The notes under the pieces are model-generated. The model did no database searches and had not been told where the DNA came from. It worked only from the letters and a program-made list of their open reading frames with translations. DNA of 61,931 nt from a virus (taxonomy: Duplodnaviria > Caudoviricetes): positions 1 to 61,931 of the IMG/VR virus record IMGVR_UViG_3300008267_000131, one strand, 5' to 3'. Below are positions 39,556-55,236 of the stretch, in pieces; position 1 is the first letter of the stretch, and the number at the start of each line of letters is the position of its first letter. A program made the position numbers and the translations under genes.

Positions 39556-39559
39556 TAGA

Positions 39560-39853: not shown

Positions 39854-39855
39854 GT

Positions 39856-41068: not shown

Positions 41069-41080
41069 AGACCTCAGACC

Positions 41081-41242
41081 ATGAAAATGAAGATGCTTAC
41101 TCCTAAAATGTATAAGGAGATTGAAGTGAAGTCTCCTGACCTTATGGAGGCTATGAGGCAGGTGCAGGCCGCCGTGAAAGTGTGTGGCTGTACTCCGCTG
41201 TACTACGAGATTTGCGCCAAATACGAAGAAGAATCAGAATAA
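41081..41242 (+). CDS. Hypothetical protein (53 aa, not in track)
   Basis: MKMKMLTPKMYKEIEVKSPDL...; fills the gap after the promoter. Confidence 0.6.
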   Translation: MKMKMLTPKMYKEIEVKSPDLMEAMRQVQAAVKVCGCTPLYYEICAKYEEESE

Positions 41243-41243
41243 G

Positions 41244-41468
41244 ATGCCAAGTAAGAGTAAAAAATTCTACGACTCCAATCCGAAGTCTAAAGAGCTCAAG
41301 AAGAAGTACGATACAAAGTACCATTCTACTGAAGAGCGGAAGAAGTACCGTGCTTTTCTGAACAAAAAAAACAGAGACGCCGGGACTTATGGGAATGGAG
41401 ACGGAATGGATTATGACCACTCTGAAAGGAAGTTTATTAAGAAAGAACGCAATAGAGCAAAAAAGTAA
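41244..41468 (+). CDS. Small basic protein with degenerate HNH-like motif (74 aa; start revised)
   Basis: GDGMDYDH...NRA; ATG 1 nt after the upstream stop. Confidence 0.6.
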   Translation: MPSKSKKFYDSNPKSKELKKKYDTKYHSTEERKKYRAFLNKKNRDAGTYGNGDGMDYDHSERKFIKKERNRAKK

Positions 41469-41470
41469 TC

Positions 41471-42097
41471 ATGCCACAGCCAAATAAGAAGCGAGTAACG
41501 AGAGGGGAGAAGCTATCGGCAAAGGCGGAGCTTGAAATGCTCAGCAATCCGTGGTCTGGAGATGCTGGCCTAGAGGCATTTCAAGAGCAACAGCGAAGAC
41601 AAGAACGCCCAGTCCTTGATGCCGCAAAAAAAATGCGCCTTGGATGGAGCGGTCTTGCCCTTGGTGGAAAGAACGGAAGAAGCAAAGCCGAGAACTGGAA
41701 TGAGCTAACCAATAAAATGGAGACACCAACTAGCCTAGACAGCAAAGCCGTTAAGGCTTTGAAGGTTATTGGTCGTGCTACTCCTATTCCACTTGTGGCT
41801 GGGGCCGTGGCATCAGGCATGACGCCAATCGTTGTATATCCAGAACTTCGGGGCGCTGGTGATTTTGTCGAGACGGTTGTTTCCGAGTCTAGAAAAAACA
41901 AAGACTACAGAAAGGATGTCAAGGTATTGGCAAAGTCTAATCGTAAAGATGCGTCTTTGTATGAACAAAGGGCCGGAGAAATAGTCCGGGCCAAATACGA
42001 AGCACGTGGATTAAAGCAAGAGGACATAGATAAACAGAAATACGGCGCACAGCAAACCACATACGCATCCAATCAAAAAACCCTAAAGAAAAAATGA
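41471..42097 (+). CDS. Basic hypothetical protein (208 aa)
   Basis: Tightly packed ORF; no family recognised. Confidence 0.65.
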   Translation: MPQPNKKRVTRGEKLSAKAELEMLSNPWSGDAGLEAFQEQQRRQERPVLDAAKKMRLGWSGLALGGKNGRSKAENWNELTNKMETPTSLDSKAVKALKVIGRATPIPLVAGAVASGMTPIVVYPELRGAGDFVETVVSESRKNKDYRKDVKVLAKSNRKDASLYEQRAGEIVRAKYEARGLKQEDIDKQKYGAQQTTYASNQKTLKKK

Positions 42098-42198
42098 CCG
42101 GCCAAGAATTCGAAGATTGGGTAAATGACCTTGAAGAGGCAAAGCAACCCACTTGCAATATTGAAAATCCAGAACAGTGCGAAAACTGCGGAAGCTGA
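42094..42198 (+). CDS. 34-aa acidic peptide ending CNIENPEQCENCGS (RNR C-terminal tail-like; not in track)
   Basis: MTGQEFEDWVNDLEEAKQPTCNIENPEQCENCGS; ATGA overlap upstream and TGATG overlap downstream. Confidence 0.75.
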   Translation: MTGQEFEDWVNDLEEAKQPTCNIENPEQCENCGS

Positions 42199-42374
42199 TG
42201 AACGAGGCGTTCAATGACTACATCTTTCACTACAATCCATACTCTCGGGTATGGAGTGCGGTAAAGCGTGAGTATTCCAATGCCTACTTCAATGGGGAGG
42301 ATATCCCTGAGGGTGGAATTCACCGCTCTGAAGATTTGAAGATATTAACGCATTACATCAACTGGAATGGCTAA
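42198..42374 (+). CDS. Hypothetical protein (58 aa; start revised)
   Basis: YIFHYNPY..VWSA..RE....YFNG; TGATG coupling. Confidence 0.65.
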   Translation: MNEAFNDYIFHYNPYSRVWSAVKREYSNAYFNGEDIPEGGIHRSEDLKILTHYINWNG

Positions 42375-42486
42375 GAGTGCAAAAAAGCGTGGTGAGAATA
42401 CAAGCGGTAAGAAGCGTGTAAGCAAAGACCGTGTGGTAATTGGTATTAATAATTTTGAAATTGTAAATCGGTTATGGCAAAAGTAG
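42367..42486 (+). CDS. Small basic protein (39 aa, not in track)
   Basis: MAKSAKKRGENTSGKKRVSK...; overlaps both neighbours by a few bases. Confidence 0.5.
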   Translation: MAKSAKKRGENTSGKKRVSKDRVVIGINNFEIVNRLWQK

Positions 42487-42611
42487 CGGCCGTTCTGGTC
42501 AAGCGTGAGAAGAAGCAGGTATCTCGTCCTGGTGTTCACGCAAAAACAAAGTCTTCTAAGAACAAGGGCAGCAAGCTCTACAAAAAGGTCTATAAGGGCC
42601 AAGGAAAATGA
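42474..42611 (+). CDS. Small very basic protein (45 aa, not in track)
   Basis: RPGVHAKTKSSKNKGSKLYKKVYKGQGK; ATGA overlap with the next gene. Confidence 0.7.
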   Translation: MAKVAAVLVKREKKQVSRPGVHAKTKSSKNKGSKLYKKVYKGQGK

Positions 42612-43048
42612 AATGGTCGTTCATCTTAATCCCATTACTAACTGGGTGCTCAGCAAGCTGGCATCTAAAGCAGGCAGTGAAGAAGGACCCGTCTCTCCTT
42701 CAAACGAAGACCATTGTCCTTACCGACACCTTGGAGCTTCCGGGGAAGACGATTGTTGACACGTTAGAGGTTCCTACTCTTGACCAGTGGACAGCTTGGG
42801 AGAATGACTCTCTTAGAATCGAGTTGTCTTTAGTTAAGGATGCTGTGACTGGTCAGAGCCGAATCAAGTTCAAGGCTGATATCAAGCCTCAGACTATAAC
42901 CAGGGAAGTGAAGGTAGACTGTCCTCCTTCGGTAATCCAGAAGCCCTCCTCTCGTTCAAGGCTATCAAGCTTTGTGCTCTACGCTCTGGGAGCCTTGTTC
43001 GTTTATGGCGTAGGGTACCTGCACGGTCGAGTAACTGGGAGAGGATAA
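42608..43048 (+). CDS. Lipoprotein with C-terminal TM helix, unimolecular spanin candidate (146 aa)
   Basis: Lipobox LLTG-C (Cys14), beta-rich middle, hydrophobic FVLYALGALFVYGVGYL near the C-terminus. Confidence 0.65.
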   Translation: MKWSFILIPLLTGCSASWHLKQAVKKDPSLLQTKTIVLTDTLELPGKTIVDTLEVPTLDQWTAWENDSLRIELSLVKDAVTGQSRIKFKADIKPQTITREVKVDCPPSVIQKPSSRSRLSSFVLYALGALFVYGVGYLHGRVTGRG

Positions 43049-43343
43049 TACGTCCTCTTCTAGATATCCGATATACCCCATATGCTTGTTTATGGATAAG
43101 GTCGTCTTTGATGGCGTCCTTGATGTGGTCTGCGGTTACAGAATACAGCTGTGAGCCATCTATATCGTTGGAGTAGTTGAAGAATCCATCTACGTCTTCT
43201 AGGTGTGCTGCGAACAGCAGGAACATAACGGTGGGCTCACCGATATGATGGTCTTTAGCTATGTACTTGATAGCCCTATTTATTTGGAAATAATCCAACG
43301 CAGCGTCTGATGCTCTACGGATTATCTCAATATTTGACGACAT
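42894..43343 (-). CDS. Putative winged-helix DNA-binding protein (149 aa)
   Basis: IKDDLIHK...GVYRISRRGR resembles the wing of MarR-like wHTH; 3' end overlaps the convergent gene. Confidence 0.45.
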   Translation of the reverse strand: MSSNIEIIRRASDAALDYFQINRAIKYIAKDHHIGEPTVMFLLFAAHLEDVDGFFNYSNDIDGSQLYSVTADHIKDAIKDDLIHKQAYGVYRISRRGRIILSQLLDRAGTLRHKRTRLPERRAQSLIALNERRASGLPKEDSLPSLPWL

Positions 43344-43633
43344 GTCTCCATAATTACTGGGCCTTGCTCACCGAAGTCCTCATCTACAAACTCTTCATTG
43401 ATAAAGTCTATGGCCTCATCTATTTCGATGTCTTTACGTCTCATGGCTATATCAACCATTGCCCAGTAGTCATAGACAAGGCATGGTTTGAGGTTTGGCT
43501 TTACCGCTATACCGAGGAATGCGTCCTCCATATCTCTGATGGCTACAATCCCGTTTACGAATTCGTTGTCATCACCGAGTGTATCGAAGATGTACTTCCG
43601 CAGGGTGTCGTAATCGTGGATTGTTCCGTACAT
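43322..43633 (-). CDS. Conserved acidic phage protein (103 aa)
   Basis: DAFLGI...LVYDY..M...DEAIDFI...GEQGPV pattern; -7 box at 43638-43645. Confidence 0.7.
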   Translation of the reverse strand: MYGTIHDYDTLRKYIFDTLGDDNEFVNGIVAIRDMEDAFLGIAVKPNLKPCLVYDYWAMVDIAMRRKDIEIDEAIDFINEEFVDEDFGEQGPVIMETCRQILR

Positions 43634-43728
43634 GTTGCAAATTTAAGATTTCCGATTATATTAACTAGTTAGTTAGTTAACTAGTATAGTTATATACTTA
43701 GAACATATATGTGGACTTTTTTGAAAAG

Positions 43729-43843
43729 TGTACGGATTTTCCGTACATCCACCCCCCAGTTTCCGGATTTTCCGTACACGTGTTACAACTCATGTCCGGA
43801 TTTTCCGTACACCCATAATTACGATGTACGGATTTTCCGGAAA
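43729..43843 (-). repeat. Four 19-bp iterons (array B, intergenic)
   Basis: Copies start at 43729, 43760, 43793 and 43825; consensus TKTMCGGATTTTCCGKAMA, the reverse complement of the repeats in the initiator gene. Confidence 0.92.
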
Positions 43844-44002
43844 CTAGTCAGACCACTTATCCGTTGGGAGTAGTGCCATGAACGTCCACCGCATCCACGT
43901 CACACCAATCCAGTAACCACCCTCGAGTGATTTATCGTAGCCAATGGACACGCACGGCAGAACAACAAACACTCCCCAGTTTTTTAAAAAGTATGTTTTC
44001 AT
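43844..44002 (-). CDS. Small hypothetical protein (52 aa, not in track)
   Basis: MKTYFLKNWGVFVVLPCVSIGYDKSLEGGYWIGVTWMRWTFMALLPTDKWSD; stop abuts array B. Confidence 0.5.
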   Translation of the reverse strand: MKTYFLKNWGVFVVLPCVSIGYDKSLEGGYWIGVTWMRWTFMALLPTDKWSD

Positions 44003-44038
44003 GGTGTGAATATAATCATTTTCCTGACGTCAGGAACT

Positions 44039-44116
44039 TGGTGACCCCGGCACGATTCGAACGTGCAACCCACAGCTTAGAAGGCTGTTGCTCTAGTCCG
44101 ATTGAGCTACGGGGCC
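44039..44116 (-). tRNA. tRNA-Arg (anticodon UCU) with encoded CCA
   Basis: Cloverleaf: acceptor GGCCCCG/CGGGGTC, D stem GCTC/GAGC, anticodon arm ACAGC-CTTCTAA-GCTGT, T arm GCACG-TTCGAAT-CGTGC, ACCA end. Confidence 0.96.
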
Positions 44117-44120
44117 TCTA

Positions 44121-44684
44121 TCACTCTTCGAGCCAGTCGACTAGCGTGGCATCGATATCCTCTTCACACATCACGTATACGTTCTGCATGTCGAGCCTAT
44201 TCTCAAAGGCGTTGCGTGGGTGGAAGGTAACCTTCTGACCAACCATCTCTGGATTGGGGTGTACGAGCACCGTTCCCTGCTTCTCACTAACCAACCCCTC
44301 AGGACGCAATTTCAGCCCTCCTGAGAGCTTTTCTGGTAGCTTGTAAGGTACCACTGCCACATGACCATTAAAACTCTCCCAAATCGAAGAATCTGACCTC
44401 TTCACAAAGAACACAGAGTCCTCTGGCACCAAACACCTCGTATCATCGTCAATAAACGCCACAGAGCCCTCCATCTCTACCACCGTGTAGTGAAAGAACA
44501 ATCTGTCCCCTCTACCTACTCTAGAGCCCCTAGGAGACGCATATACGACCCCCTCCTGCTTAGCATAGTGCGTGGGCCTATACGTCGGGTCGACATACAA
44601 CACCCCTCCACCGTTCAACTCAATCTCCCTATTGTACGCATCCCTATTGATGTCCACAATAAAACGTCCAAATACACTGTCCAT
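44121..44684 (-). CDS. GroES-like co-chaperonin, tandem domains (187 aa; start revised to ATG 44684)
   Basis: RFIV...GG.LY...GVVYA.P...GDRLFFHY and VAV.P...SGGL...GTV...GQKVTF...VMCEEDI; -7 box TATATTTG at 44703-44710 lies inside the longer track ORF. Confidence 0.72.
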   Translation of the reverse strand: MDSVFGRFIVDINRDAYNREIELNGGGVLYVDPTYRPTHYAKQEGVVYASPRGSRVGRGDRLFFHYTVVEMEGSVAFIDDDTRCLVPEDSVFFVKRSDSSIWESFNGHVAVVPYKLPEKLSGGLKLRPEGLVSEKQGTVLVHPNPEMVGQKVTFHPRNAFENRLDMQNVYVMCEEDIDATLVDWLEE

Positions 44685-44734
44685 AATCAACTTATTTGAC
44701 CGCAAATATAACCTACCCCACACCAACCAAACCA

Positions 44735-44910
44735 ATAGCTAAATCCTATCACCTGCCTGTCTTACCCCCGTAATTTTCGAGACAAACACCATTTCCAATA
44801 GCCAAAACCTATCAGCATCCCAACACCATACCCCCATCTAAATACCCCCACCACCCAGCAAAACCACTGTAAATCAGTTAACTAACCGGGTGCCCATAGC
44901 TAAAAACTAT
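44735..44910. repeat. Three ATAG-N7-CTAT dyad sites
   Basis: ATAGCTAAATCCTAT at 44735-44749, ATAGCCAAAACCTAT at 44798-44812, ATAGCTAAAAACTAT at 44896-44910. Confidence 0.7.
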
Positions 44911-45163
44911 TAGCCAACAAACCATGTAGGTCGGGAGGAAACAATGTGAGTTGGGAGGGGCAATAACACATACAAGAAGGGGGGAGTGCCTGCGCTGCGG
45001 GAACCGCTCGCACTCACCGGGTACCCCCCGCCGGCTTTCAGCCTCACACGAGGTACCCCAACCTCCCCCAACCAGCCAACTAATGCCAAAGTAAAACTAA
45101 AAGTTTTAACCCTGCTATTAGACTGGCTAACCGGCTGAAAGTCAGTAGGGTTAGACCGGGAAC

Positions 45164-45198
45164 TTCTTGTATTATTGACGAGTCAATAAGTACAAGAA
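45164..45198. repeat. 35-bp near-perfect inverted repeat
   Basis: TTCTTGTA-TTATTGAC-GA-GTCAATAA-G-TACAAGAA, one bulged base. Confidence 0.85.
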
Positions 45199-45374
45199 AA
45201 CCCCCCAAAAACTCCCTTGGCTTGACTCGCTCTAACTTAGCGTGTGAAACTAAAGTAAGACTTTAGTCGTGTGTGAAGTTTGCGCTTGGGTTATGCTTGG
45301 GCTTTATGCGCCCTTATGCGATTACAATCCCCTTGCCATCCCTTTAGGGATGATTTCCCATTGTCTTGGATAGG

Positions 45375-45407
45375 TTTGGAAAGTTTCCGATGCTTGCCGT
45401 ATCTTTG
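45375..45407 (+). promoter_or_regulatory. Full Bacteroidota primary-sigma promoter for early genes
   Basis: TTTG (45375-45378), 21-nt spacer, TATCTTTG (45400-45407). Confidence 0.85.
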
Positions 45408-45448
45408 CAGCAGTTCAACCGGTCAACCGACCACAATTCCCCTTAATC

Positions 45449-45916
45449 ATGAAAACCACGACAACCACCCCAACCACCCGTAAGACTAACCGCAAGAGCA
45501 GCAAGGCTGCCCCACGTGTTAGTAGCAAGGCTACAAGTCTTGAATCAAAAGAGGCGAAGCCTCTGCCGAAGGACGTTTACTTCCGGCTTCGCTACCGATT
45601 GGCTTTACAAGCCAATAATCTTGGCTCTGCCAAGAAGTTTGCCAACATCCTTAAAAGGATGGAGGCTCCTTTGGAAGTTAAAGGTGAAACCTTTAAGACA
45701 ATGGCTAAAGCCATTGAGTACGTAGATTCATTGAAGGCTCCGAAGGCTACGCCGAAGGCTGCTCCGGTAGCAAAGAAGGTGCGTGAGCCGAAGGCCACGA
45801 GCGATTCTTTGGCTGAAGTGCTGAAGCAAATCAATGAGATGGCTACGAAGTACAATTGGTCTAAAGCCGAAGTAGCCAAAATGACTATGGCTGCTATTGA
45901 CAAGGTTGGTGCTTAA
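45449..45916 (+). CDS. First early gene, Lys/Ala-rich basic protein (155 aa)
   Basis: Follows the promoter; KAPKATPKAAP repeats; ends in a terminator. Confidence 0.75.
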   Translation: MKTTTTTPTTRKTNRKSSKAAPRVSSKATSLESKEAKPLPKDVYFRLRYRLALQANNLGSAKKFANILKRMEAPLEVKGETFKTMAKAIEYVDSLKAPKATPKAAPVAKKVREPKATSDSLAEVLKQINEMATKYNWSKAEVAKMTMAAIDKVGA

Positions 45917-45931
45917 GCATCAACCTTTTTT
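45902..45931 (+). terminator. Intrinsic terminator overlapping the stop codon
   Basis: AAGGTTGGTGCT/AGCATCAACCTT stem followed by a T-run. Confidence 0.75.
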
Positions 45932-45945
45932 ATTCTTTTAAATCT

Positions 45946-46071
45946 ATGAATACCTTCGAGATTACCCTTGACGGCAAGACTTACCGCATAGAGGCTTATA
46001 GCCTCCGTGAGGCAAAGACTGCCGCTGTTCTCCTTTCTATGAATCTTTATGAACTCCCCTTTGAACTTTAA
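45946..46071 (+). CDS. Small early protein (41 aa, not in track)
   Basis: MNTFEITLDGKTYRIEAYSLREAKTAAV... Confidence 0.55.
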   Translation: MNTFEITLDGKTYRIEAYSLREAKTAAVLLSMNLYELPFEL

Positions 46072-46107
46072 TTTCTTTTGTCTAATCTTTGGAATCTTTC
46101 TAACACT

Positions 46108-46641
46108 ATGAAACCCTTTTCTGACCACGAAATGAGCCGAATTCAAGCGGCTCTCTTGCAGCGATTTTTAACCACCGAAGGTGCTTATCAAGACTACCTC
46201 AAAGCATTCAAGAGCGACAACGAGGAGGGCTATTCGCTATATGTTTATACCGGTGTTTCGACACATTTATTGTATACTTATTGCGCTATAATTTCTTCCT
46301 TTAATTGGGATTCACATTCAAGAGCCGAAGGAAAAACTTGGGCTGAACTCAATTCTGAGTCTACGGATTTCATAGAGTCAGAATATAAAAAGATAGACAA
46401 GTGGGTTAGGACTTCAGTCATAGCCTATGACCTTTATAGATTCCTTGGACACGAGGTCTTCGCTTCCTTTGTTGCCAATGTAGTAAGATGGAAAGTCATC
46501 AATGAATTGAAAGAATCTGAAGGGCTCAATATCATAGATGATGCGTTCACTTGGAAAGCAACATTTGAAGGTCACGACTTTTGGTCTGACTTAAGTGCTT
46601 CTTATGATGAATTCAAGACAAGTGAAGCCGCCGCACTTTAA
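46108..46641 (+). CDS. Early protein with duplicated F.W...EG..W module (177 aa; start revised)
   Basis: ISSFNWDSHSRAEGKTWAEL and IDDAFTWKATFEGHDFWSDL. Confidence 0.7.
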   Translation: MKPFSDHEMSRIQAALLQRFLTTEGAYQDYLKAFKSDNEEGYSLYVYTGVSTHLLYTYCAIISSFNWDSHSRAEGKTWAELNSESTDFIESEYKKIDKWVRTSVIAYDLYRFLGHEVFASFVANVVRWKVINELKESEGLNIIDDAFTWKATFEGHDFWSDLSASYDEFKTSEAAAL

Positions 46642-46680
46642 TTCGGTAGCAAAATCCCTTAATCAATCAAAACCTTAATC

Positions 46681-48144
46681 ATGGAATTTTTAATCAAAAC
46701 CACGGCCGGTCAACAATTATCTTCTAAATCATTAGACACGGCACTTCGTGACGCCGGGCTTCACAAAGCCGGAGGCAGACTCACTAAATCTCAAGCCCTT
46801 TTTCGAATCAAGAAAAACGGAGCCTCTTTATACATCAGAAAGAATCACTATGAAGGCTGGACTTTAGTCGAAGACGTAGAGCAATTCACCTCGGGAGAAT
46901 CAACCTCTCAAGGCGGAAGCCCCGACGATGGACTCTCTGATTCTCAACCAATTCAATCAACCAACCCCGACATGACAACCACCACAATTCAACAAGAAGT
47001 AAAACAAAAGTCTAAAGCCGACCGCATTGCTGAACTCGAGCAAGAACTCAAGGACAAACAAGAGCGCAAGGAATCATTAGAGCAAGAGAAGCAAGAGCAT
47101 AAGAAAGACCTTGCCGAGGCTTGCGAACGCCAACAAAAACTCGAGGACATTGGTCTATGGGATGATGATTCTATGACTACTGCCCGTGAGTCTATTGAGC
47201 AGACCCAAGCCGATGCCCTAAGCCAAGCCGATGATGCTCAAGACTTGATAGAGCAGACCGAGCAGCGGATTGAGGAAATCGAGAAGGAACTCGAAGAACT
47301 CAAGGCTGCACCCGAGGAGTCTACTGATGTTCCGGTCGGCAAGAGCAAGGTCAAGCACCCAATGCAAGATGTCTTGATTCGTCGATGCAAGGCTGTTCAG
47401 ACCGCTCACAATATGAGTCAAGATGCTTTGTATCCTATGCTTGTTGGCCCGGCTGGCTCCGGTAAGACTACGGCAGCAAGGAATGTCGCTCTTGAGATAT
47501 TCGGTGAGACTGCTATCGAGGATGGCAAGTTCGGCATGATGTCTCTCAATGAAGAATCAGAACGCAGCGAAGGCTTCGGCTTCATTAGCCCTATCGACAA
47601 GATGTACAAGTCTACGGACTTCCGCAGAATCTATGAGAACGGCGGAGTATTCTTACTTGATGAGGTCGATGCTGCCAACGCCAACACCTTGACTGCTCTG
47701 AACGCTGCTATCTCGGCTCCGTTTGCTTCATTCCCCGACAAGATTGTCAAGCGCAGCCCTGACTTTATTCTGATTGCAGCAGCCAACACCTTCGGCAACG
47801 GAGCGGATGGCTTGTATGTTGGTCGGAATGAATTAGACGCAGCGACTCGTGACCGATTCTTGACTATGGTTTGGAACTACGATTGGGATGGCATTCGTGC
47901 TGCTCGCCCCGGACACAAGGCTCTTGTGACTCTTATTGAGCGGTTGTCTAACGCTGCCATTTCATTAGAGATGCAGCACATTATCTCTCCTCGGGCTGCA
48001 CTCTTTGCTCCATTCATGATTGCTCAAGGTGATTCATTGAAGGAGGCACTTGATGCTTGTGTATTCAAAGGACTACCGAAGGATGATGTAGATACTCTGC
48101 TATCCAAAGTAGGTATGTCTGTCTCTGAATTGGAAACTATCTAA
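46681..48144 (+). CDS. MoxR/CbbQ-type AAA+ ATPase with N-terminal coiled coil (487 aa)
   Basis: Walker A GPAGSGKT, Walker B FLLDE, AAANT.G.G, LDAATRDRF, ISPRA. Confidence 0.9.
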   Translation: MEFLIKTTAGQQLSSKSLDTALRDAGLHKAGGRLTKSQALFRIKKNGASLYIRKNHYEGWTLVEDVEQFTSGESTSQGGSPDDGLSDSQPIQSTNPDMTTTTIQQEVKQKSKADRIAELEQELKDKQERKESLEQEKQEHKKDLAEACERQQKLEDIGLWDDDSMTTARESIEQTQADALSQADDAQDLIEQTEQRIEEIEKELEELKAAPEESTDVPVGKSKVKHPMQDVLIRRCKAVQTAHNMSQDALYPMLVGPAGSGKTTAARNVALEIFGETAIEDGKFGMMSLNEESERSEGFGFISPIDKMYKSTDFRRIYENGGVFLLDEVDAANANTLTALNAAISAPFASFPDKIVKRSPDFILIAAANTFGNGADGLYVGRNELDAATRDRFLTMVWNYDWDGIRAARPGHKALVTLIERLSNAAISLEMQHIISPRAALFAPFMIAQGDSLKEALDACVFKGLPKDDVDTLLSKVGMSVSELETI

Positions 48145-48237
48145 TTGATTCAATATGATTATTATTGCCGTGTTCCTTGTGCTTGTTGCACTTGCTTATG
48201 ACACTTCCAAAGAAATTCACCATTAAAATTCAAAGAC

Positions 48238-49086
48238 ATGATTTACAAACACATGTATGATTCCCCTCGGGAATTGTTTCAGTTAGCCAAATCGCTGGCT
48301 ATGACCGGACAATCTTCTCACAACGGAGATGCCGATTTTACAGGTACCGAATCTTTTGAGGAGGCCGTAGCCCTAACCGACAACGGATGGAATCCAAGCG
48401 AACTCAAAGCCAAAGCCAAGTCTATTGGACTACGAGCCGAGAAGCAGCGGATGTCTACCAAGAAGGATAACCGGGGCAGCACTCTTTTGATTGACCGATA
48501 CACCGAAGGCAGTCCCGATTGCTTCCGCCGTAAGTATCGAGAGCCAAAGGAGGACAAGCATATTCCCTTAATCTTTGAGGTGAATGAGCCGGCTTCGGTC
48601 AGCAAGAATCAAATGTTCCTCAAGGCTTCGGTAATAACGCAAGTCGTAGAGAATCTGCGCAAGCAAGGAATCTCGACAAGTATCTATGCCTACTTCGCAG
48701 TCCATGGTTACGAACTTGAAATCATTGAGGCTATCCCGGTGAAGAAGCGCAGCGAGCGTCTGCAGATTCATAAACTTGGGGCGATGATGCACCCTTCCTC
48801 CTTCAGAAGAATCTACTTTGGTAGACTCGAGAACGGCAGCAAAGGTCGCAAGTCAGAGAACAATGTACTCAAAGATTGGCAGAAGATGCCCTTCGGTAGC
48901 GGCTATGGTCGACCCACCAAGGAATTGTCTACCAACGCAGTTCAGTTTATCAAAGACTCTCTGAAAATTGACCGAGCCATCATTATCTCGTCTATCTATG
49001 AATCAAGCATTAGCCTCCGCAATGAGAATGATGCAGCCAAATGGGTAAACAAGATTGTCGATGACTGCAATGCGATGTTCAAATGA
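48238..49086 (+). CDS. VWA-like partner of the AAA+ ATPase (282 aa)
   Basis: Follows the ATPase; FTGT.SF.EA, degenerate MIDAS (EVNEPASVS), HPSSFRR..F, GYG.P. Confidence 0.7.
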   Translation: MIYKHMYDSPRELFQLAKSLAMTGQSSHNGDADFTGTESFEEAVALTDNGWNPSELKAKAKSIGLRAEKQRMSTKKDNRGSTLLIDRYTEGSPDCFRRKYREPKEDKHIPLIFEVNEPASVSKNQMFLKASVITQVVENLRKQGISTSIYAYFAVHGYELEIIEAIPVKKRSERLQIHKLGAMMHPSSFRRIYFGRLENGSKGRKSENNVLKDWQKMPFGSGYGRPTKELSTNAVQFIKDSLKIDRAIIISSIYESSISLRNENDAAKWVNKIVDDCNAMFK

Positions 49087-49277
49087 AGAATCGCTATGTA
49101 TCCGCACTACTTGTTTTAGTCTTTGTCTATCTCACGACTAAAGCATTGGAGGCCGCAAGCAATGCGGCTTCCTTTCATCAGCACGTCAGATGGGATGCTA
49201 TATTCATATATGAAGGCATCCTACTTCTGATTGCAACTCTCCTCCTTGTCTTATCCTTAATCTCCAAAATCAAATGA
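49083..49277 (+). CDS. Small two-TM membrane protein (64 aa)
   Basis: Two hydrophobic segments; ATGA overlaps. Confidence 0.6.
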   Translation: MKNRYVSALLVLVFVYLTTKALEAASNAASFHQHVRWDAIFIYEGILLLIATLLLVLSLISKIK

Positions 49278-49768
49278 CACTCTCTTCTGAAATCAAATGG
49301 ATGGCTTTCAAAGCCGCACTCGAAACCAATCTCGATAGCCTTGTTCAAACCTTCCGAGGTGAGAAGGCTGGCATCACTATGAATGACGCTATGGAATTCA
49401 TAGACAAGCACTTCAAAAATTCTCTTGGTCATGACCTTGAGTATCATATTCGAAACAATGTCAAGCCCGACCACAAGGCAGCCAACAAAATGGTTGTCGA
49501 AACGCAGATGGGCGTTATACATTCTATCGAAAAGAATCTTGAAGAGCATGATGAAGTCTTATTAGACAAGCAGTCGGTAACGCAGTTTGCTCAAGCAGCA
49601 GTATGGATGCCGATAATGTTAGGGGTTGCTTTAGACATGTGCTATGTCAACTTCCAACATCATGGAATGATTGATGTTCAAATAGATTCAGTCATAGATG
49701 CCGGAACCGAAGAGGTATCCGGTGAACTCGATGACCTTCTCGGTGGACTTGGAATCACTAAAGAATAA
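49274..49768 (+). CDS. Hypothetical protein (164 aa)
   Basis: Coupled ORF with acidic LDDLLGGLGI end. Confidence 0.7.
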   Translation: MTLSSEIKWMAFKAALETNLDSLVQTFRGEKAGITMNDAMEFIDKHFKNSLGHDLEYHIRNNVKPDHKAANKMVVETQMGVIHSIEKNLEEHDEVLLDKQSVTQFAQAAVWMPIMLGVALDMCYVNFQHHGMIDVQIDSVIDAGTEEVSGELDDLLGGLGITKE

Positions 49769-49792
49769 TCTGCGCAATTAGTTGAACTTGAT

Positions 49793-49821
49793 GGGGAAGG
49801 GCGCAGCCTTCCCCTTCTTTT
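49793..49821 (+). terminator. Intrinsic terminator
   Basis: GGGGAAGG/CCTTCCCC stem followed by TTCTTTT. Confidence 0.75.
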
Positions 49822-49838
49822 AAATCCCTTAATTAATC

Positions 49839-49973
49839 ATGAACATACCACAAACAATCCAAGTCCCCGTCTACTACTACATTGCAGACAACGGACAACC
49901 CGTATTCGACATTGAACAAATGGAAGAATACTTTGCTCAAGAATTAGATAAATTGGAAAATCAAGAATACTAA
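49839..49973 (+). CDS. Small acidic protein (44 aa, not in track)
   Basis: MNIPQTIQVPVYYYIADNGQPVFDIEQMEEYFAQELDKLENQEY. Confidence 0.6.
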   Translation: MNIPQTIQVPVYYYIADNGQPVFDIEQMEEYFAQELDKLENQEY

Positions 49974-49979
49974 TTAATC

Positions 49980-50342
49980 ATGACACAACTTCAAACAATA
50001 GACAACTTCATCCTTTATATCACGTCTGCTTCAAGTAGTCAAGATGATTTATTCGATGAGCCGATGACATTCACGCCACGTCAACTATATGACTTGGCAG
50101 ATGTCTATTCTAAACAAGAATCTTCAAATGATAAGATTCATGTTTGCACCCACTTCCTTGGAACAACCGCCGATGTCGATGACTTCACGTTTGAATGGAT
50201 GAGTCTACTTGGTAGCCCGGTAACGGCAGAACTAAAGAAAGATTCTATGGGAGCGGTGAAGGCTTGGTATTGCGAGGCTTTTGTCACGAAAGACCAAATA
50301 GAATCTTTTGACATGAAATCAGATTGGATAATTAACAACTAA
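49980..50342 (+). CDS. Acidic hypothetical protein (120 aa)
   Basis: Track ORF with TAATC-ATG start context. Confidence 0.65.
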   Translation: MTQLQTIDNFILYITSASSSQDDLFDEPMTFTPRQLYDLADVYSKQESSNDKIHVCTHFLGTTADVDDFTFEWMSLLGSPVTAELKKDSMGAVKAWYCEAFVTKDQIESFDMKSDWIINN

Positions 50343-50349
50343 CACAACT

Positions 50350-50553
50350 ATGGAAACAAATCACATGGATTCTTACGGAGTCTTTTGTATGTGCGACCGA
50401 CTATTGACGTTTGGCGTATTAGACATCGATGAACTCGATACACGATGGGAAGTGTCTATTGCCGAATACAACAAGTTCCTAAAAAGCAAGTACAATGTTG
50501 ACACCAAGAGCGAACTTGACTGCATTGATGAATACATAACCAACACATTCTAA
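50350..50553 (+). CDS. Acidic hypothetical protein (67 aa)
   Basis: Track ORF, tightly packed. Confidence 0.6.
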   Translation: METNHMDSYGVFCMCDRLLTFGVLDIDELDTRWEVSIAEYNKFLKSKYNVDTKSELDCIDEYITNTF

Positions 50554-50555
50554 TT

Positions 50556-50867
50556 ATGGAAACCACATTCAACAAGTACAAGTACCTACAAGAACTAATC
50601 AATGAAGTCAAAGAAGGCATAGCCGATGGGACTATCAAAGATTGGGATGATGTATGCGACCTCGTAGACAATTCTATTTCTAATGAAGTTATATACTACG
50701 ACGACTCATTGCAAATCATATCTCAAACCGGTCTATATGATTGGTCTGGTATTGATGATGACCTGATTACCGATGTGACTCGTGTTGCCTATTGGGGCTT
50801 ACACAACTTTGTCTTTGAAGAATCAGAAGATGAGTTTAACTCAACAATCTTTAATCTACATGAATAG
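50556..50867 (+). CDS. Ocr (T7 gp0.3)-like DNA-mimic anti-restriction protein (103 aa)
   Basis: 24 D/E versus 5 K/R; KE.I....I.D.DD..D........N.V.YY.D pattern aligns by eye with T7 Ocr as I recall it. Confidence 0.62.
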   Translation: METTFNKYKYLQELINEVKEGIADGTIKDWDDVCDLVDNSISNEVIYYDDSLQIISQTGLYDWSGIDDDLITDVTRVAYWGLHNFVFEESEDEFNSTIFNLHE

Positions 50868-51108
50868 TCTTGAGTCAAAGATTAAAGCAATCCTCGAGAG
50901 GGGCGGCACTACTGCCGCTCCTTCGGGGGATGCCGAATGGAAGCCACAACGAGGAGAGATGGTGTATGTTACTGATGACCCCGAAGATTCAATAGAGCGA
51001 TGCCTACTCAGAGAATACATTGTGCAAGATGAGAAAGGAAAGCATTGGGCTTGGTCTAAAGAAAAAACGGATAAAGTATCTTGGCTTTATGTCTTCCAAA
51101 AGAAATAG
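50860..51108 (+). CDS. Hypothetical protein (82 aa; start revised)
   Basis: WKPQRGEMVYV.D motif; overlaps the upstream stop. Confidence 0.6.
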   Translation: MNSLESKIKAILERGGTTAAPSGDAEWKPQRGEMVYVTDDPEDSIERCLLREYIVQDEKGKHWAWSKEKTDKVSWLYVFQKK

Positions 51109-51241
51109 ATTTTATGAGGCATTCAATGCCGACACTCTCCGCTATGATGTCATAGACCGGAAGAGTCATAAGATAGTCCGTACCTTCGACAAGAAGTACG
51201 GGGCTATGATGTGGTCACTTATGTTAAACAACCGGGAATAA
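51089..51241 (+). CDS. Hypothetical protein (50 aa; start revised)
   Basis: YDVIDRKSHKIVRTF..KYGA. Confidence 0.5.
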   Translation: MSSKRNRFYEAFNADTLRYDVIDRKSHKIVRTFDKKYGAMMWSLMLNNRE

Positions 51242-51261
51242 TCCCACTAATCCTTAATCCT

Positions 51262-51420
51262 ATGAATGATTTAGATTTAGAACTCGTAAACATGTATATT
51301 CAAATGAAGCGGTCAGGGCATGGTCGTGCCGCTTTAGAACACAAGATTATCTGCAAAGACAAGGGGCATTACTCTGCCGTGTCTAAGATGAATCAGTATG
51401 ATGATGGAATCGAAGATTAA
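51262..51420 (+). CDS. Hypothetical protein (52 aa; start revised)
   Basis: ATG preceded by CCTTAATCCT. Confidence 0.5.
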   Translation: MNDLDLELVNMYIQMKRSGHGRAALEHKIICKDKGHYSAVSKMNQYDDGIED

Positions 51421-51625
51421 GTATGCGGTCGCAGTCGAGGGGTTATACATTGAGGTAACCCCCGACGCAGCCGATAGACTTCTCAAGGCAACCGAATACC
51501 TGGTGCTAAAGTCTAAAGGTCGTGATGTCTATCCAGCCCTTGCGCTTGCGCTCGATGAATTGGCTGAGCTCTCGGGAAAGCGTACCGAAACTGACAACGG
51601 GGATGCCCAAATAAATCTCCCGTAA
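51398..51625 (+). CDS. Hypothetical protein (~75 aa)
   Basis: Track ORF; exact start among tandem ATGs uncertain. Confidence 0.55.
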   Translation: MMMESKIKYAVAVEGLYIEVTPDAADRLLKATEYLVLKSKGRDVYPALALALDELAELSGKRTETDNGDAQINLP

Positions 51626-51643
51626 AATTTTTGGAAACTTTCC

Positions 51644-51673
51644 TTGTGTAATTGAAATTTGTTTTTATCTTTG
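51644..51673 (+). promoter_or_regulatory. Bacteroidota promoter for middle genes
   Basis: TTG at 51644-51646, 19-nt spacer, TATCTTTG at 51666-51673; intergenic. Confidence 0.75.
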
Positions 51674-51711
51674 TCGAGCAAAGTTGTTTTTGCAAAACTA
51701 AAATTTGATTT

Positions 51712-52098
51712 ATGAAACACTACGTTAAAGGGGTCGTAATCGACCCGAATCTCCAAACCGTATCTACTGCGGAAATCGCTGCAGATGAGGATGGTACGGT
51801 AAATCTTGGCGCACTATATGATGTGCTCGGATGCAACCTAGTAGATAGGTTCTCACTATCATCAGATGCCGACCTTATCATCGACGACGAGGGGCTGCTT
51901 AAGCCAAACAATCCCGGTTTTAAGATTGGAGATTATCCACGTTACTTCGCAGGCAAGGCTCTTATCTTGCGTGTAGATGGTGGCGAGTGGGTAAGCGTAC
52001 CGGCTGTAAACCTTGAGGCGTTGTACTCCATGATTGAGTGGGCTGCGCCTTCGGAGGTACAAGAGCAAGACATGAGTGTTAAAGTAACTACTATGTAA
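51712..52098 (+). CDS. DUF3846-like protein (128 aa)
   Basis: LY..LGC.LV...LIIDDEGLLK...FAG.ALI. Confidence 0.7.
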   Translation: MKHYVKGVVIDPNLQTVSTAEIAADEDGTVNLGALYDVLGCNLVDRFSLSSDADLIIDDEGLLKPNNPGFKIGDYPRYFAGKALILRVDGGEWVSVPAVNLEALYSMIEWAAPSEVQEQDMSVKVTTM

Positions 52099-52104
52099 TT
52101 AGCC

Positions 52105-52443
52105 ATGGAAAAAGTTGAATCAATTATTGAGCGCACTATCAAGGAACTTGAGAAGCGTGGCTACAACGTAAAGCAGTCTAGGAAGCAAAAGAACTCTAGC
52201 AAGTCAAAGTCCGTAGATGTTTCATTCGCAAAGAAACTGATGTTCGAGTCTATGTATCGCATACATGAGATAGCAAAAGACAAGGCTCAGTACAATCGGA
52301 TGTACTACGTTCTTAACAGCGAGGCTTCTTTTTCACACGAAGACGCAATGACTATCATTGACTTTCATTCACGTCAGTCCATGATTATACAACAATTAAT
52401 GCATGAATATTTCAAAGAAAAAACCCAAGCCATTAGTGAGTGA
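52105..52443 (+). CDS. Hypothetical protein (112 aa)
   Basis: Track ORF in the operon. Confidence 0.6.
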   Translation: MEKVESIIERTIKELEKRGYNVKQSRKQKNSSKSKSVDVSFAKKLMFESMYRIHEIAKDKAQYNRMYYVLNSEASFSHEDAMTIIDFHSRQSMIIQQLMHEYFKEKTQAISE

Positions 52444-52657
52444 ATCTCTTAAGTCAGCTTGTTTTATGATTTCGGAGACAAAGGGTTATCGTGGTATGGG
52501 CATCACGTCTATTGCCAAAGATTGTGGAGTAGGCCAAGACCGGCTGTACAAAATCATCGAAGGCAAGAGCGGGGTGCGTGGACTTCCATTCGAGGTCTAC
52601 CACAAAATGTCAAAACGATTCCCATTTGTCGAAGAACTGCTATCGAGGGCGTTGTGA
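52436..52657 (+). CDS. Cro/XRE-like HTH protein (73 aa; GTG start)
   Basis: GITSIAKDCGVGQDRLYKIIEG fits a helix-turn-helix. Confidence 0.6.
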   Translation: MSESLKSACFMISETKGYRGMGITSIAKDCGVGQDRLYKIIEGKSGVRGLPFEVYHKMSKRFPFVEELLSRAL

Positions 52658-53013
52658 CCGAAGAGTGGCGTTTGTGTGAGATGTTCCCCATGTACGAGGT
52701 CAGCAACTTCGGTAACGTAAGGAACGCAAAAAGCAAAAGGCTACGTCGTGCAGCAGACCGATACGGACATAGACAAGTACTACTTATTGTTGTCAAGGGT
52801 CGCAAAAGAAGATTCGCTACTATCGCAAGACTTGTTCTAATGGCATTCAAGCCGGAGGACATGGGGCTAACGAAGTGGTGGCACATCGATGGCGACAAGA
52901 CCAACGACCATGTAGACAATCTTAAGTGGGTGACTTGGAATGAACTTAGAAAACTGAGAAAGCGTGCTAAGCGGAAGGCACTAAGATTATCCGCACAAAA
53001 ACCTAAATCATGA
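52654..53013 (+). CDS. NUMOD4-HNH endonuclease-like protein (119 aa; GTG start)
   Basis: EEWR...YEVSNFGNVRN and HIDGDKTNDHVDNLKW; GTGA overlap. Confidence 0.8.
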   Translation: MTEEWRLCEMFPMYEVSNFGNVRNAKSKRLRRAADRYGHRQVLLIVVKGRKRRFATIARLVLMAFKPEDMGLTKWWHIDGDKTNDHVDNLKWVTWNELRKLRKRAKRKALRLSAQKPKS

Positions 53014-53447
53014 GTATAGTCCAAGGAGAAATCCAAAACATCGAGGTGACACCATTCAAAGACATGTTTCGTCACCAGCTTACTGTAAACGGCACCAAGT
53101 ATTCCGTATACAAGAAGTCTAACAATCCATTTGCAGCGATTGGCTCGTCCATCACGCTTCAAATCACCAACCCTACCGCCGGAACGGCAAAGGTTCTCGA
53201 GGTAGCAGGGTCGGCTCCGGTAACGCAGCAGTCATTTCAGCAGCCTTCATACACGCCACAACCGCAGTATGTCGCTCCGCAGCCTACGTACCAAGCGCCC
53301 GAGCCTAAGGCAGACAAGGATGTGCTTATCATCCGACAAACGTGCGTCAAGTCAGCTTGTGAGTTCTATGCCTCGCAGCCAATTGAAACGTATGATGATA
53401 TCATTGACCTCGCTCGTAAACTCGAGAACTATGTCTTGCAAGGATAG
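53010..53447 (+). CDS. Putative ssDNA-binding/annealing protein (145 aa)
   Basis: Beta-rich N-domain, Gln/Pro linker, KD.LIIRQ.C.K.A.EF C-domain. Confidence 0.5.
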   Translation: MSIVQGEIQNIEVTPFKDMFRHQLTVNGTKYSVYKKSNNPFAAIGSSITLQITNPTAGTAKVLEVAGSAPVTQQSFQQPSYTPQPQYVAPQPTYQAPEPKADKDVLIIRQTCVKSACEFYASQPIETYDDIIDLARKLENYVLQG

Positions 53448-53545
53448 AAGCGTGTTGTCTTTCATTGAGTGGATGGACAAAATTCAAAACATCTATGCTA
53501 GAAATAATTGGATGATGGATGTCGCAATCGCAAAACTGATGAGCA

Positions 53546-53692
53546 ATGAAATACGCAAACATTGATGAACTGAAGACCGACGTCATGCGCACTTGTTCGT
53601 TCCTTGAGCATTTCTATGAGGAACTTGATGAGTATGGCATGGAAGAGTACAAGAAGTTTATTAAAGTCCACGAATTCCTACAATCACTATGA
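53546..53692 (+). CDS. Hypothetical protein (48 aa, not in track)
   Basis: MKYANIDELKTDV...; ATGA overlap with the MazG-like gene. Confidence 0.5.
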   Translation: MKYANIDELKTDVMRTCSFLEHFYEELDEYGMEEYKKFIKVHEFLQSL

Positions 53693-54000
53693 GCGAAGAA
53701 CTAGAGTTTGAACACCTACGCACCGCCGTATTAGAATGGGCGGCAGAGCGTAGTCTACTGAAACCCGAGAATGCCTTCAAGCAAATGCTGAAGGTATCAG
53801 AGGAGGTCGGCGAGCTAGCCGGAGCCATTGCCAAGAATAACCGAGAGGATACCATTGATGCTATTGGCGACACACTTGTCACCATCATCATCCTATCGGA
53901 ACAACTTGGCTTAGACCCAACCGTTTGTCTATTGTCTGCCTATCAGACTATTGCCAACCGCAAGGGTAAGACTGTAAATGGTGTATTTATCAAAGAGTGA
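53689..54000 (+). CDS. MazG-like NTP pyrophosphohydrolase (103 aa)
   Basis: WA.ER.L...QMLK..EEVGELA...DAIGD.LVT...AY..I..RKG..VNG.F.K. Confidence 0.9.
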   Translation: MSEELEFEHLRTAVLEWAAERSLLKPENAFKQMLKVSEEVGELAGAIAKNNREDTIDAIGDTLVTIIILSEQLGLDPTVCLLSAYQTIANRKGKTVNGVFIKE

Positions 54001-54257
54001 TGAGCGAAGAACTTGCACACGATGATGTAGCATGCAACGTATGCGGCCGTGTCGGATTCCATGCGGATGATTGCTGGAAGCGTTCATTCATTGCATACAT
54101 ACCCAATAAGCATGTACTTGGTTTGTCTAAGGACAAGTCAAGCCTAGAGACTCTTTATGCAAATAAGGAGGGAGTTGTTATTGAGGAGCGTGACCCATTT
54201 GGAAACTATCCATATTACCACACTGAATTTTATTACCCATCACTTCGTGAAGACTGA
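53997..54257 (+). CDS. Hypothetical protein with CxxC..H..C motif (86 aa)
   Basis: CNVCGRVGFHADDC. Confidence 0.55.
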   Translation: MMSEELAHDDVACNVCGRVGFHADDCWKRSFIAYIPNKHVLGLSKDKSSLETLYANKEGVVIEERDPFGNYPYYHTEFYYPSLRED

Positions 54258-54573
54258 TTTATTTGTAAAGAGAGTGCGTGAGCGCATGGCACGTTCGATG
54301 AGCGTGTTAGACAGCAAGCGCAAAGAGTATGTGTTCAATGACAATCCATTCCAAAACTTTGAAGAGGGTGTTGGTCTAAGCGTCGTAAGCACAAGAGAGG
54401 CTGTAACCTATGGGTATGCAGTAAAGCACCTGCAGTCAGTTCGGGCTATCATCGATAATTTCGAGTCTACAGGAGCCCTTCCGGATGAGGCGGTGATACA
54501 AGAAAAGTTTGGTGATGCAATTAATTATCTAATCATCTTAGAGCAAATGCTTCTTGAGCATTTAGAAGACTAA
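54247..54573 (+). CDS. All-alpha nucleotide-modification-associated (Nmad1-like) protein (108 aa; GTG start)
   Basis: K.KEY...PFQNFE...KH...EKFGDAINYLIIL. Confidence 0.65.
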   Translation: MKTDLFVKRVRERMARSMSVLDSKRKEYVFNDNPFQNFEEGVGLSVVSTREAVTYGYAVKHLQSVRAIIDNFESTGALPDEAVIQEKFGDAINYLIILEQMLLEHLED

Positions 54574-54676
54574 TAATGGGCAGCAGCAAGTTGGTTACGC
54601 TATGCATTAGGTTGTTCCGGTGGGGCATAGCGGCTGCCTTTTTTAGACTTTTATGCAATTCATACACTTGGTACCA

Positions 54677-54937
54677 ATGAACAAGTACACCAACAGATAC
54701 GGAGACGAGTTTACGTTTGAGAAGAACGAGAACGGCAACATTGACTGGAAGGGGAACTTCAAGTACACACGATTCGGATGGGATGACGATGACAACATCA
54801 TATTCGTAGACCCAAGCGGTGGCCCATTTATATCTATTGGCTACCCACTTGAGGTCGCAGAAATCGACCGCAAGGTTGTTGGGTTTATAGACCACACAAC
54901 TCATTGGGAGATTCTAATTGAGGATAATGTGCAATGA
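54677..54937 (+). CDS. Conserved phage protein (86 aa; start revised)
   Basis: NRYGDEFTF...FVDPSGGPFI. Confidence 0.65.
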   Translation: MNKYTNRYGDEFTFEKNENGNIDWKGNFKYTRFGWDDDDNIIFVDPSGGPFISIGYPLEVAEIDRKVVGFIDHTTHWEILIEDNVQ

Positions 54938-55236
54938 AACGACTAACGAGAGAACAAAAGAAGGAGAAGGCAATGATTGACATCGTCAATAAGATGTTTG
55001 AGATTGCTGGACACGACGTTACCTACGACGACATCGTGGGCGTAGACGAGTGGTGGCAGAAGTACACTATGACTGTTGCTCAGGGAGATGAACTTGAGGA
55101 GTGGGGCAAGAAGTACCTTATGCGTGAACTCAAGATGCGAGCAGTCTACGCAGAGAAGGAAATGATGTGGTTCAGTGTAATGTGGGGGCTGAAGTATTCA
55201 GACTTTGACGAACACATTAAGAGTAAATTAAAATGA
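54934..55236 (+). CDS. Hypothetical protein (100 aa)
   Basis: MFEIAGH.VTY...WW..YTMT...WGLK; coupled ORF. Confidence 0.7.
   Translation: MKRLTREQKKEKAMIDIVNKMFEIAGHDVTYDDIVGVDEWWQKYTMTVAQGDELEEWGKKYLMRELKMRAVYAEKEMMWFSVMWGLKYSDFDEHIKSKLK

Follow-up and report, generated by a model that had tools for sequence, protein, structure and literature searches.

The stretch of DNA considered here is the IMG/VR record IMGVR_UViG_3300008267_000131, which comprises 61,931 bases, is classed as linear and has an estimated completeness of 98%. The whole stretch is referred to below as the window. It belongs to a 62-kb podophage whose terminase relatives are found among Flavobacterium and Cellulophaga phages (68 and 15, respectively, of the 123 relatives in a collection of cultured phages, all below 60% identity and the best at 31%). 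The host is probably a member of the Bacteroidota. The subject of this report is a restriction-word desert at positions 44902..51566 (the zone), which contains no AGCT, CTAG, ACNGT or CASTG and in which CTNAG, GGNCC, [AC]CAG and CAGG are reduced 5- to 10-fold.

The zone starts within a non-coding region of 713 nt (44736-45448), from which plus-strand genes continue to the end of the record. Seven zone genes are conserved in all three lineages, namely that of the window (W) and two related ones (C3 and C4). The first gene (45449..45916, plus strand) encodes a conserved basic protein of 155 amino acids (aa), rich in Lys, Ala and Pro, with an isoelectric point (pI) of 10.2, a net charge of +19 and no family match. 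A terminator-like hairpin of 11 pairs with a T run is placed directly after it (45902..45927, plus strand). The largest conserved products are a MoxR-type AAA+ ATPase of 487 aa with an acidic, coiled N-terminal half (46681..48144, plus strand) and a DUF7192 protein of 282 aa with a predicted VWA/MIDAS-type fold (48238..49086, plus strand). The other conserved genes encode a 64-aa hydrophobic protein, a 164-aa acidic protein and two small open reading frames (ORFs) of about 50 aa. A second terminator-like hairpin within the zone (49793..49814, plus strand) follows the 164-aa gene and precedes a variable island (49839..51108, plus strand) of small acidic ORFs of 44, 120, 67, 103 and 82 aa (pI 4.1-5.8). 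Most of these ORFs are absent from C3 and C4, and part of the island is deleted in a contig that is 95-96% identical (L041). The first gene past the zone, a DUF3846 gene (51712..52098, plus strand), opens a DNA-metabolism block with HNH, MazG, YqaJ, DnaB-like and VRR-NUC genes.

Loss of words in the zone

The word AGCT occurs at 245 sites in the 61931 bases of the window (about one per 252 bases) and at none in the zone. Its flanking sites start at 44898 and 51567 and leave a gap of 6669, the next largest gap being 1557. CTAG occurs at 104 sites, again with none in the zone; its flanking sites start at 44530 and 51838 and the gap of 7308 compares with a next largest gap of 2831. At the density of the remaining window, the zone would hold 29.5 AGCT and 12.5 CTAG. 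Both gaps had been described by eye in an earlier note on this DNA, and their coordinates prove exact.

The Markov and codon-shuffled null models that the earlier note had proposed both find the gap significant. The 14 coding sequences (CDS) of the zone (5838 nt) were subjected to 500 synonymous-codon shuffles that preserve the proteins and the zone codon usage. The shuffled sequences contain 28.2 +/- 4.3 AGCT and 11.3 +/- 2.8 CTAG, against one AGCT (the site at 51567) and no CTAG observed. None of the 500 shuffles matches the observed count of either word, nor does any of the 300 of the three-lineage set described below, and resampling with late-gene or middle-gene codon usage leaves this outcome unchanged. 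Under a maximal-order Markov model the observed/expected ratio (O/E) of both words is 0.00 in the zone, and 0.79 (AGCT) and 0.69 (CTAG) in the rest.

The loss is also visible in the choice of neighboring codons. For Glu-Leu, the zone uses GAA-CTN 13 times and GAG-CTN once (the single case is the 51567 site) and the late genes 21 and 34 times, respectively, which bears out the codon preference that had been noticed by eye. In the same way, AAG-CTN is found 0 times in the zone and 32 times in the late genes, with AAG representing 59% of the zone Lys codons. The control palindromes TCGA, CATG and TGCA are normal in the zone by codon shuffles. The G+C content of the zone (0.41-0.48) is inside the range of the remaining window, and its di- and trinucleotide make-up differs from the rest. 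The loss thus acts at the level of words or codon pairs and not of codon usage.

The purged set is wider than AGCT and CTAG. In 44902-51566, ACNGT is found 0 times against 18.9 expected from the rest of the window, CASTG 0 times, CTNAG 5 times against 26.4 and GGNCC once against 8.1. The purged words include what we take to be the sites of AluI, BfaI, Tsp4CI, DdeI and Sau96I. Non-palindromic words are depleted as well: [AC]CAG/CTG[GT] has 13 sites in the zone, or 2.0 per kb, where the middle genes have 8.0 per kb and the late and lysis blocks 15-21 per kb. CAGG/CCTG has 7 sites. AGCT and CTAG, which the earlier note had named as the target words, are therefore both purged, but they are just two of about ten, and AGCT is unpurged in one of the three lineages.

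The non-palindromic words are lost from both strands (on the coding strand, ACAG remains once and CTGT three times), which points to double-stranded DNA and not RNA as the target. The depletion of [AC]CAG and CAGG holds whatever the flanking base, on both strands and in the three lineages, and the scarcity of CCAG/CTGG continues to about 54 kb. Neither GCAG nor TCAG is depleted in the zone, their frequencies being normal or raised (CTGC/GCAG have a Markov O/E of 2.1-2.3). No single word in the IUPAC (International Union of Pure and Applied Chemistry) code was found that covers all the depleted words; CYAG, MCWGK and ACNGT each cover a part.

The local loss is accompanied by avoidance on the scale of the genome, and the phage shows both forms. 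GATC is found 0 times and CGCG once in the whole window. GATC is also at 0 in C3 and C4; genome-wide absence of CGCG is shared by the window lineage and C3, and the word is present in C4 (36 sites in contig L004).

One word, GANTC, shows the opposite tendency. The zone contains 61 sites against 26 expected from the rest, and its coding sequences contain 58, a count exceeded by none of 300 shuffles (mean 33.5). C3 and C4 show the enrichment as well. Either the avoidance of certain codon pairs may produce it as a side effect, or GANTC may itself be a signal.

Conservation and edges of the zone

The relatives were found via the AAA+ ATPase of the zone. Lineage C3 is represented by a 24.4-kb contig (72% protein identity to the window) and lineage C4 by a 31-kb contig and a 63-kb metagenome contig (55-58%). 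An alignment-based rescan of viral contigs returned the same three loci. When the AAA protein was compared by tblastn with 50,697 phage records, no match extended over 80% of it; the protein was found in 0 of 5 records of more distant relatives, and a megablast search of the zone and 20 kb of late genes against the same 50,697 records gave no match. C3 and C4 are syntenic with the window over the terminase, small plus-strand genes, a minus-strand gene, non-coding DNA, the zone genes and the DUF3846 gene. The position of the desert is identical in both, with homologous flanks.

In the three-lineage test, the counts in the zone CDS were compared with codon-shuffle means, given here in the order W, C3 and C4. 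CTAG (0/0/0 against means of 11.5/7.1/9.2) and ACNGT (0/0/0 against 7.1/6.2/7.1) are absent throughout, and CTNAG is low throughout (4/3/1 against 21.8/18.4/15.1). The sets are otherwise specific to each lineage. AGCT is retained in C3 (0/10/0 against 27.3/20.9/18.1), ACGT is purged in C4 only (9/9/0 against 19.6/14.7/9.5) and GGCC is low in the window only. At the four-fold sites of the AAA and DUF7192 genes, the window is 51-65% identical to C3 and 40-42% to C4. The silent sites have therefore largely turned over and the words are still absent, which argues for ongoing selection and not for a recent import. The difference of word sets between lineages is the pattern expected from changing host enzymes. 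A recent import, which the earlier note had raised as the case that would undo its own reading, is in this way made unlikely by the related genomes to which it had pointed: the desert stands in the same place in C3 and C4, with word sets that are partly different, and has been kept by selection in three diverged lineages.

The edges of the zone lie where they had first been placed, in the non-coding region at the left and close to a conserved putative promoter (-7 box at 51666) at the right. At the left, the last sites before the zone cluster at 44855-44898, in non-coding DNA. Three 20-nt direct repeats (CCAATAGCTAAATCCTATCA type; 44732..44912, plus strand), which are non-coding and not conserved in relatives, hold the last AGCT (44898), ACNGT (44866) and CASTG (44865) before the desert. 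Further to the right, at about 44940-45448, the non-coding region is conserved among the three lineages. This part includes a G+C-rich conserved leader (44940..45200, plus strand) upstream of the putative promoter P1, and a hairpin with 15-nt arms (45163-45197), also upstream of P1, whose arms differ between the window and C3 and yet remain complementary. The 276-nt leader folds, as DNA, better than 200 of 200 shuffles (z -3.25).

P1 (45373..45407, plus strand) is composed of TTTG-N23-TATCTTTG and includes the palindrome TTGGAAAGTTTCC. All three lineages conserve it, and it points inward, about 470 nt from the left edge. The second putative promoter, P2 (51631..51673, plus strand), is composed of TTGGAAACTTTCC followed by TATCTTTG at 51666 and is likewise conserved in the three lineages. 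At the right, the first sites after the zone lie at 51383-51838, and in all three lineages the purged words return 100-250 nt upstream of P2. TAnnTTTG with an upstream TTTG is the Bacteroidota promoter type. With 42 matches in the window and 42.7 expected, the TANNTTTG motif shows no enrichment, so the promoter calls draw on conservation alone. The 13-mer palindrome TTGGAAAsTTTCC is found free of mismatches only at 45376-45388 and 51631-51643 of the window. Copies with one or two mismatches stand ahead of genes at 46089, 48130 and 54199, and the palindrome may be the operator of an early regulator.

Zone proteins, genome layout and other local gaps

The AAA+ ATPase matches Pfam AAA_5 (PF07728; 1.6e-10, 41.6 bits against a cut-off of 22) and phrog_249 (5.5e-35). 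The DUF7192 family comprises 869 representative clusters at E <= 0.001. A structural model of the zone member, built from 66 sequences, has a predicted local distance difference test score of 90.8. Foldseek relates it to the VWA domain of NorD in NorQ-NorD complexes at an E value of 2.6e-6, with a template modelling (TM) score of just 0.33. With VIA, the model gives Z 9.3 for NorD (root-mean-square deviation 4.8, 195 residues aligned), 9.0 for the Rea1 MIDAS domain and 8.8 for the MDN1 MIDAS domain. By these models, the conserved core of the zone is predicted to be a MoxR-type AAA+/VWA pair. It resembles NorQ-NorD, CobS-CobT and Rea1 MIDAS in having an AAA_5 ATPase followed by a VWA-fold protein, and differs from them in that it does not belong to their families at the sequence level (10% identity). 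We know of no role in restriction or DNA entry for AAA+/VWA pairs.

The other searches returned little. No Ocr, ArdA or other anti-restriction family was found in 10 zone proteins with Pfam, PHROGs and NCBIfam, a scan that did not take in every small ORF. NCBIfam gave weak sub-threshold ATPase and coiled-coil matches alone for these 10 proteins. In the ESM Atlas, the first gene and the 164-aa protein gave no usable feature match, and all structure rows had a query-normalised TM below 0.4.

Outside the zone, the late genes occupy 2-39507 on the minus strand and include a 3345-aa protein, a tail fibre that carries a Peptidase_S74 chaperone domain, the portal (phrog_6547, 1.4e-81) and the large terminase (phrog_6681, 5.2e-96). 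A plus-strand block at 39560-44000 contains endonuclease VII and M15 peptidase genes. It is followed on the minus strand by a tRNA-Arg(TCT) (44039-44116), the sole match of an Rfam scan of 39000-53000; a 204-aa ORF is also on the minus strand. The nucleases encoded by the phage are HNH (twice), endonuclease VII and VRR-NUC, and no RNA polymerase family was found among the window proteins scanned.

The 3345-aa virion-type protein (2-10036, minus strand) is open at the contig end. It has no PHROG match and no PDB sequence match, and Pfam gives only a borderline match, to a RadC-like JAB domain (residues 1874-1956; 22.3 bits, the cut-off being 22.1). Giant proteins of 3694 aa (structural) and 3859 aa are found at the matching position in elemoF, a cultured Flavobacterium phage, and in MW202828.1. 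The idea of an N4-like or crAss-like phage with a virion RNA polymerase is unsupported: the 3345-aa protein has no D.D.D motif and no polymerase family.

Upstream of the tRNA, in the plus-strand block, four copies of a palindromic 23-nt unit (TGTACGGATTTTCCGTACA type) stand 31-33 nt apart (43729-43847); from its sequence, the array looks like an iteron or operator array. The metagenome contig depth rises 5- to 100-fold at 43670-44203, which holds the tRNA-Arg, and at 54350-55417, which holds small ORFs (54934-55400), in four runs. Loose contig ends are numerous in these high-depth stretches, at about 44050, 55371 and 55400. These small ORFs seem to be common to this phage and other genomes of greater abundance. 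The stretch as a whole is present in 20 of 24 listed public runs from 11 studies. Most of the runs are labelled as lake, freshwater or aquatic metagenomes, three as fungus metagenome, and several are unlabelled.

The zone is not the only local gap. About 80 palindromic patterns were scanned in each of seven genomes, and seven patterns have a gap below log10P -4 in the window. CATG, with 165 sites in the window, is absent from 18650-31023 (12,373 bases, log10P -15.7), and within this stretch TCGA is absent from 23744-28553 and CCGG from 19279-25517. Tail fibres and an endonuclease VII-like gene are encoded in this block. Three further lineages (L009, L011 and L013) share the edge at about 31.0 kb, including where alignment of the tail-fibre DNA is lost. 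First entry cannot account for this desert. The likeliest explanation is a host-range module exchanged within a pool of CATG-avoiding phages, for example of the elemoF type; no donor was found among cultured phages.

Early-block gaps are also found in two distant phages of the same architecture. MW202828.1 (60.85 kb, from a spring) has no GCNGC at 42886-55027 out of 157 sites (log10P -14.8); this desert of 12.1 kb covers its plus-strand early block, and GATC and CCGG are absent genome-wide. In elemoF, no ACNGT is found at 8723-19461 out of 67 sites (log10P -4.5), a gap that covers the early small-gene block, and CATG, CCGG, GGCC and CGCG are avoided genome-wide. Among more distant relatives, two genomes show nothing (G002 and G004), one is borderline (G001, -3.5) and one has a single CCWGG gap (G003, -5.0).

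Proposed staged entry and its alternatives

The best explanation, to which we assign a probability of about 0.6, is that type II words have been locally purged from a first-exposed early operon, entry being staged or transcription-limited. On this view the podophage genome would be linear, with the zone as the early operon block at its leading end. This leading DNA would meet the type II restriction enzymes of the host before any phage protection, and sites for the enzymes met by each lineage would be selected out of the zone. The rest of the genome, which retains its sites, would enter later, either after a T5-like stop or through a T7-like transcription-limited entry, ending just before P2. 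Alternatively or additionally, the rest may be shielded by a function made from the zone. We infer that the left edge marks the physical terminus, that the DNA enters in stages and that something made from the zone protects the rest; the earlier note had likewise inferred staged entry, with a protector encoded in the zone or injected with the DNA. A leading end is supported by the succession of a conserved inward promoter, early genes without known function and a variable island of acidic ORFs. It is also consistent with contig ends: four independent contigs end or start at 44825, 44899, 44963 and 45274 (L041, L044, L009 and a contig of run X10 that starts at 44899). The 24 public runs are all stored as contigs, with one depth figure per contig. 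The gaps over the early blocks of MW202828.1 and elemoF count in favor of the explanation as well.

Such an arrangement has precedents. According to PMC10644984, type I and type II systems fail to restrict T5-like phages unless sites are located in the first-step-transfer DNA; what protects these phages is described there as unidentified. The T5 precedent cited in the earlier note is as it was stated. The principle is shown experimentally for T5 and BF23 in that source (PMC10644984) and for murciaviruses in PMC12455610. In murciaviruses, type I motifs matter only in the first-injected region, and the authors argue that restriction selection concentrates on the leading segment and remark that bioinformatic surveys had not taken site location into account (PMC12455610).

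The zone resembles the first-step-transfer DNA of T5 and BF23 (Tequintavirus) in that an early block is free of sites that are common in the remaining genome (PMC10644984 for T5). The sizes are similar, about 8-10 kb for the T5 block and 6.7 kb for the zone. In T5, a terminal repeat of about 10 kb carries the block, and a long non-coding injection-stop region closes it, whereas the zone ends within an 86-nt promoter-bearing spacer. A long direct terminal repeat of the T5 type is not found at the zone, to judge from the contig depths in runs X2 and X10.

With the T7-like phages (Autographiviridae, including murciaviruses) the phage shares inward host-type promoters at the leading end. The leading region of T7-like phages is the one in which motifs sensitise, only the first-injected ones doing so, and their early region is variable and rich in anti-defence genes (PMC12455610). 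The murciavirus work concerned one type I motif, whereas in the zone some ten short words of type II character have been purged; neither an Ocr-like protein nor a phage RNA polymerase came to light among the phage proteins scanned. Compared with genome-wide palindrome avoidance, the kind of words and the statistics are alike, and this phage itself has GATC at 0 and CGCG at 1. The difference is that the purge of the zone is local, with edges sharp to about 100 nt, and is superimposed on the genome-wide form. Literature searches on restriction-site or palindrome avoidance in phage early regions gave no systematic survey of local deserts, and those on Elemovirus, by title and abstract, nothing on entry or termini.

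Several observations weigh against a purged leading end. The region at 44.7-45.4 kb is bridged by the window, by L002 and by contigs of runs X1, X2 and X6. Bridging is expected from concatemers or from a short terminal repeat, and equally from a site that is not terminal. The contig depth is much the same inside and outside the zone (11.6 against 11.7 and 11.4 in run X2, where one contig spans 41000 to 51875, and 22.7 against 25-27 in run X10). Consequently, the zone is not a collapsed T5-like long terminal repeat, although there may be a short one. No known anti-restriction protein or DNA methyltransferase is present among the proteins scanned. The [AC]CAG and CAGG words are asymmetric and fit no restriction specificity known to us, and neither they nor the CATG desert are explained by a purge of first-exposed DNA. 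The edge of that desert is itself conserved, so a conserved local desert alone is no proof of a leading end. Finally, three of the four more distant relatives (G001, G002 and G004) have no desert beyond log10P -3.5.

Other explanations have to be set against the same evidence. The zone could be an imported module, drawn from a phage pool that avoids the words genome-wide and not yet adapted to its present genome. Pools of this kind exist, as the genome-wide avoidance of CATG, CCGG and GGCC in elemoF indicates, a tail-fibre module elsewhere in the window, next to an endonuclease VII-like gene, lacks CATG and nearly lacks TCGA and CCGG, and the di- and trinucleotide make-up of the zone, unlike that of the rest, would agree with a foreign source. 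We nevertheless regard import as improbable: the desert is in the same place, between homologous flanks, in three lineages with only 40-65% identical four-fold sites, each lineage has 0 CTAG and 0 ACNGT where shuffles expect 7-11 and 6-7, and the word sets differ by lineage. Nor has a donor appeared, the tblastn search of the 50,697 phage records with the AAA protein having given no match at 80% coverage. Hardly better odds can be given to a cooperative disarming, in which the whole genome enters and may be cut, the site-free cassette survives and disables restriction, and later kin succeed. The linear fragment would be exposed to exonucleases, and the left edge, situated in non-coding DNA at a place where contigs end, is better explained by a physical end. 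What such a scheme would account for is a self-contained zone, with a conserved P1, internal terminators and no site for about ten words, in a phage that is abundant in lakes (20 of 24 listed runs, 11 studies).

A constraint unrelated to restriction, whereby the words would disturb operon transcription signals, a DNA-binding regulator, the DNA structure at ejection or a phage nuclease, is the least probable of these alternatives. The enrichment of GANTC (58 against 33.5, 0 of 300 shuffles above) and the asymmetry of [AC]CAG and CAGG, which are not classical sites, speak in its favor, as do the unique palindrome shared by P1 and P2 and the several nucleases encoded by the phage. Yet the fully purged words are classical type II palindromes, both strands are affected, and from one lineage to the next the word set is altered although the genes are retained. 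If a phage nuclease cut AGCT, the 245 sites elsewhere would be hit too.

The purge of a first-exposed operon therefore keeps the preference given above. A more specific version of it is tentative, and we would not rely on it: transfer would proceed in two steps with a stop just before P2, a conserved zone product (the basic first protein, the AAA+/VWA pair or an acidic ORF) would shield the other 55 kb from many type II enzymes independently of sequence, and the scarcity of [AC]CAG and CAGG would reveal a host nuclease or defence that reads asymmetric 4-mers. To our knowledge, asymmetric 4-nt words are not a described specificity.

Since the principle of a site-poor leading end is established, the finding brings a further phage group and many 4- and 5-bp words under a known strategy and does not represent a new mechanism. 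It stands out by how many words have been reduced to zero, how sharp the edges are and how well the desert is conserved between lineages. About seven conserved genes would be left as candidates in a search for a broad anti-type II function, and elemoF, which shows a weaker form of the desert pattern, is a possible test system. In uncultured phages, a site-free block would serve as a predictor, from sequence only, of the first-entering end, of the point where entry or exposure stops and of the restriction specificities of the host. For the present phage, the predicted host specificities would be AGCT, CTAG, ACNGT, CTNAG, GGNCC and CASTG, from the local loss, and GATC and CGCG, from the genome-wide one.

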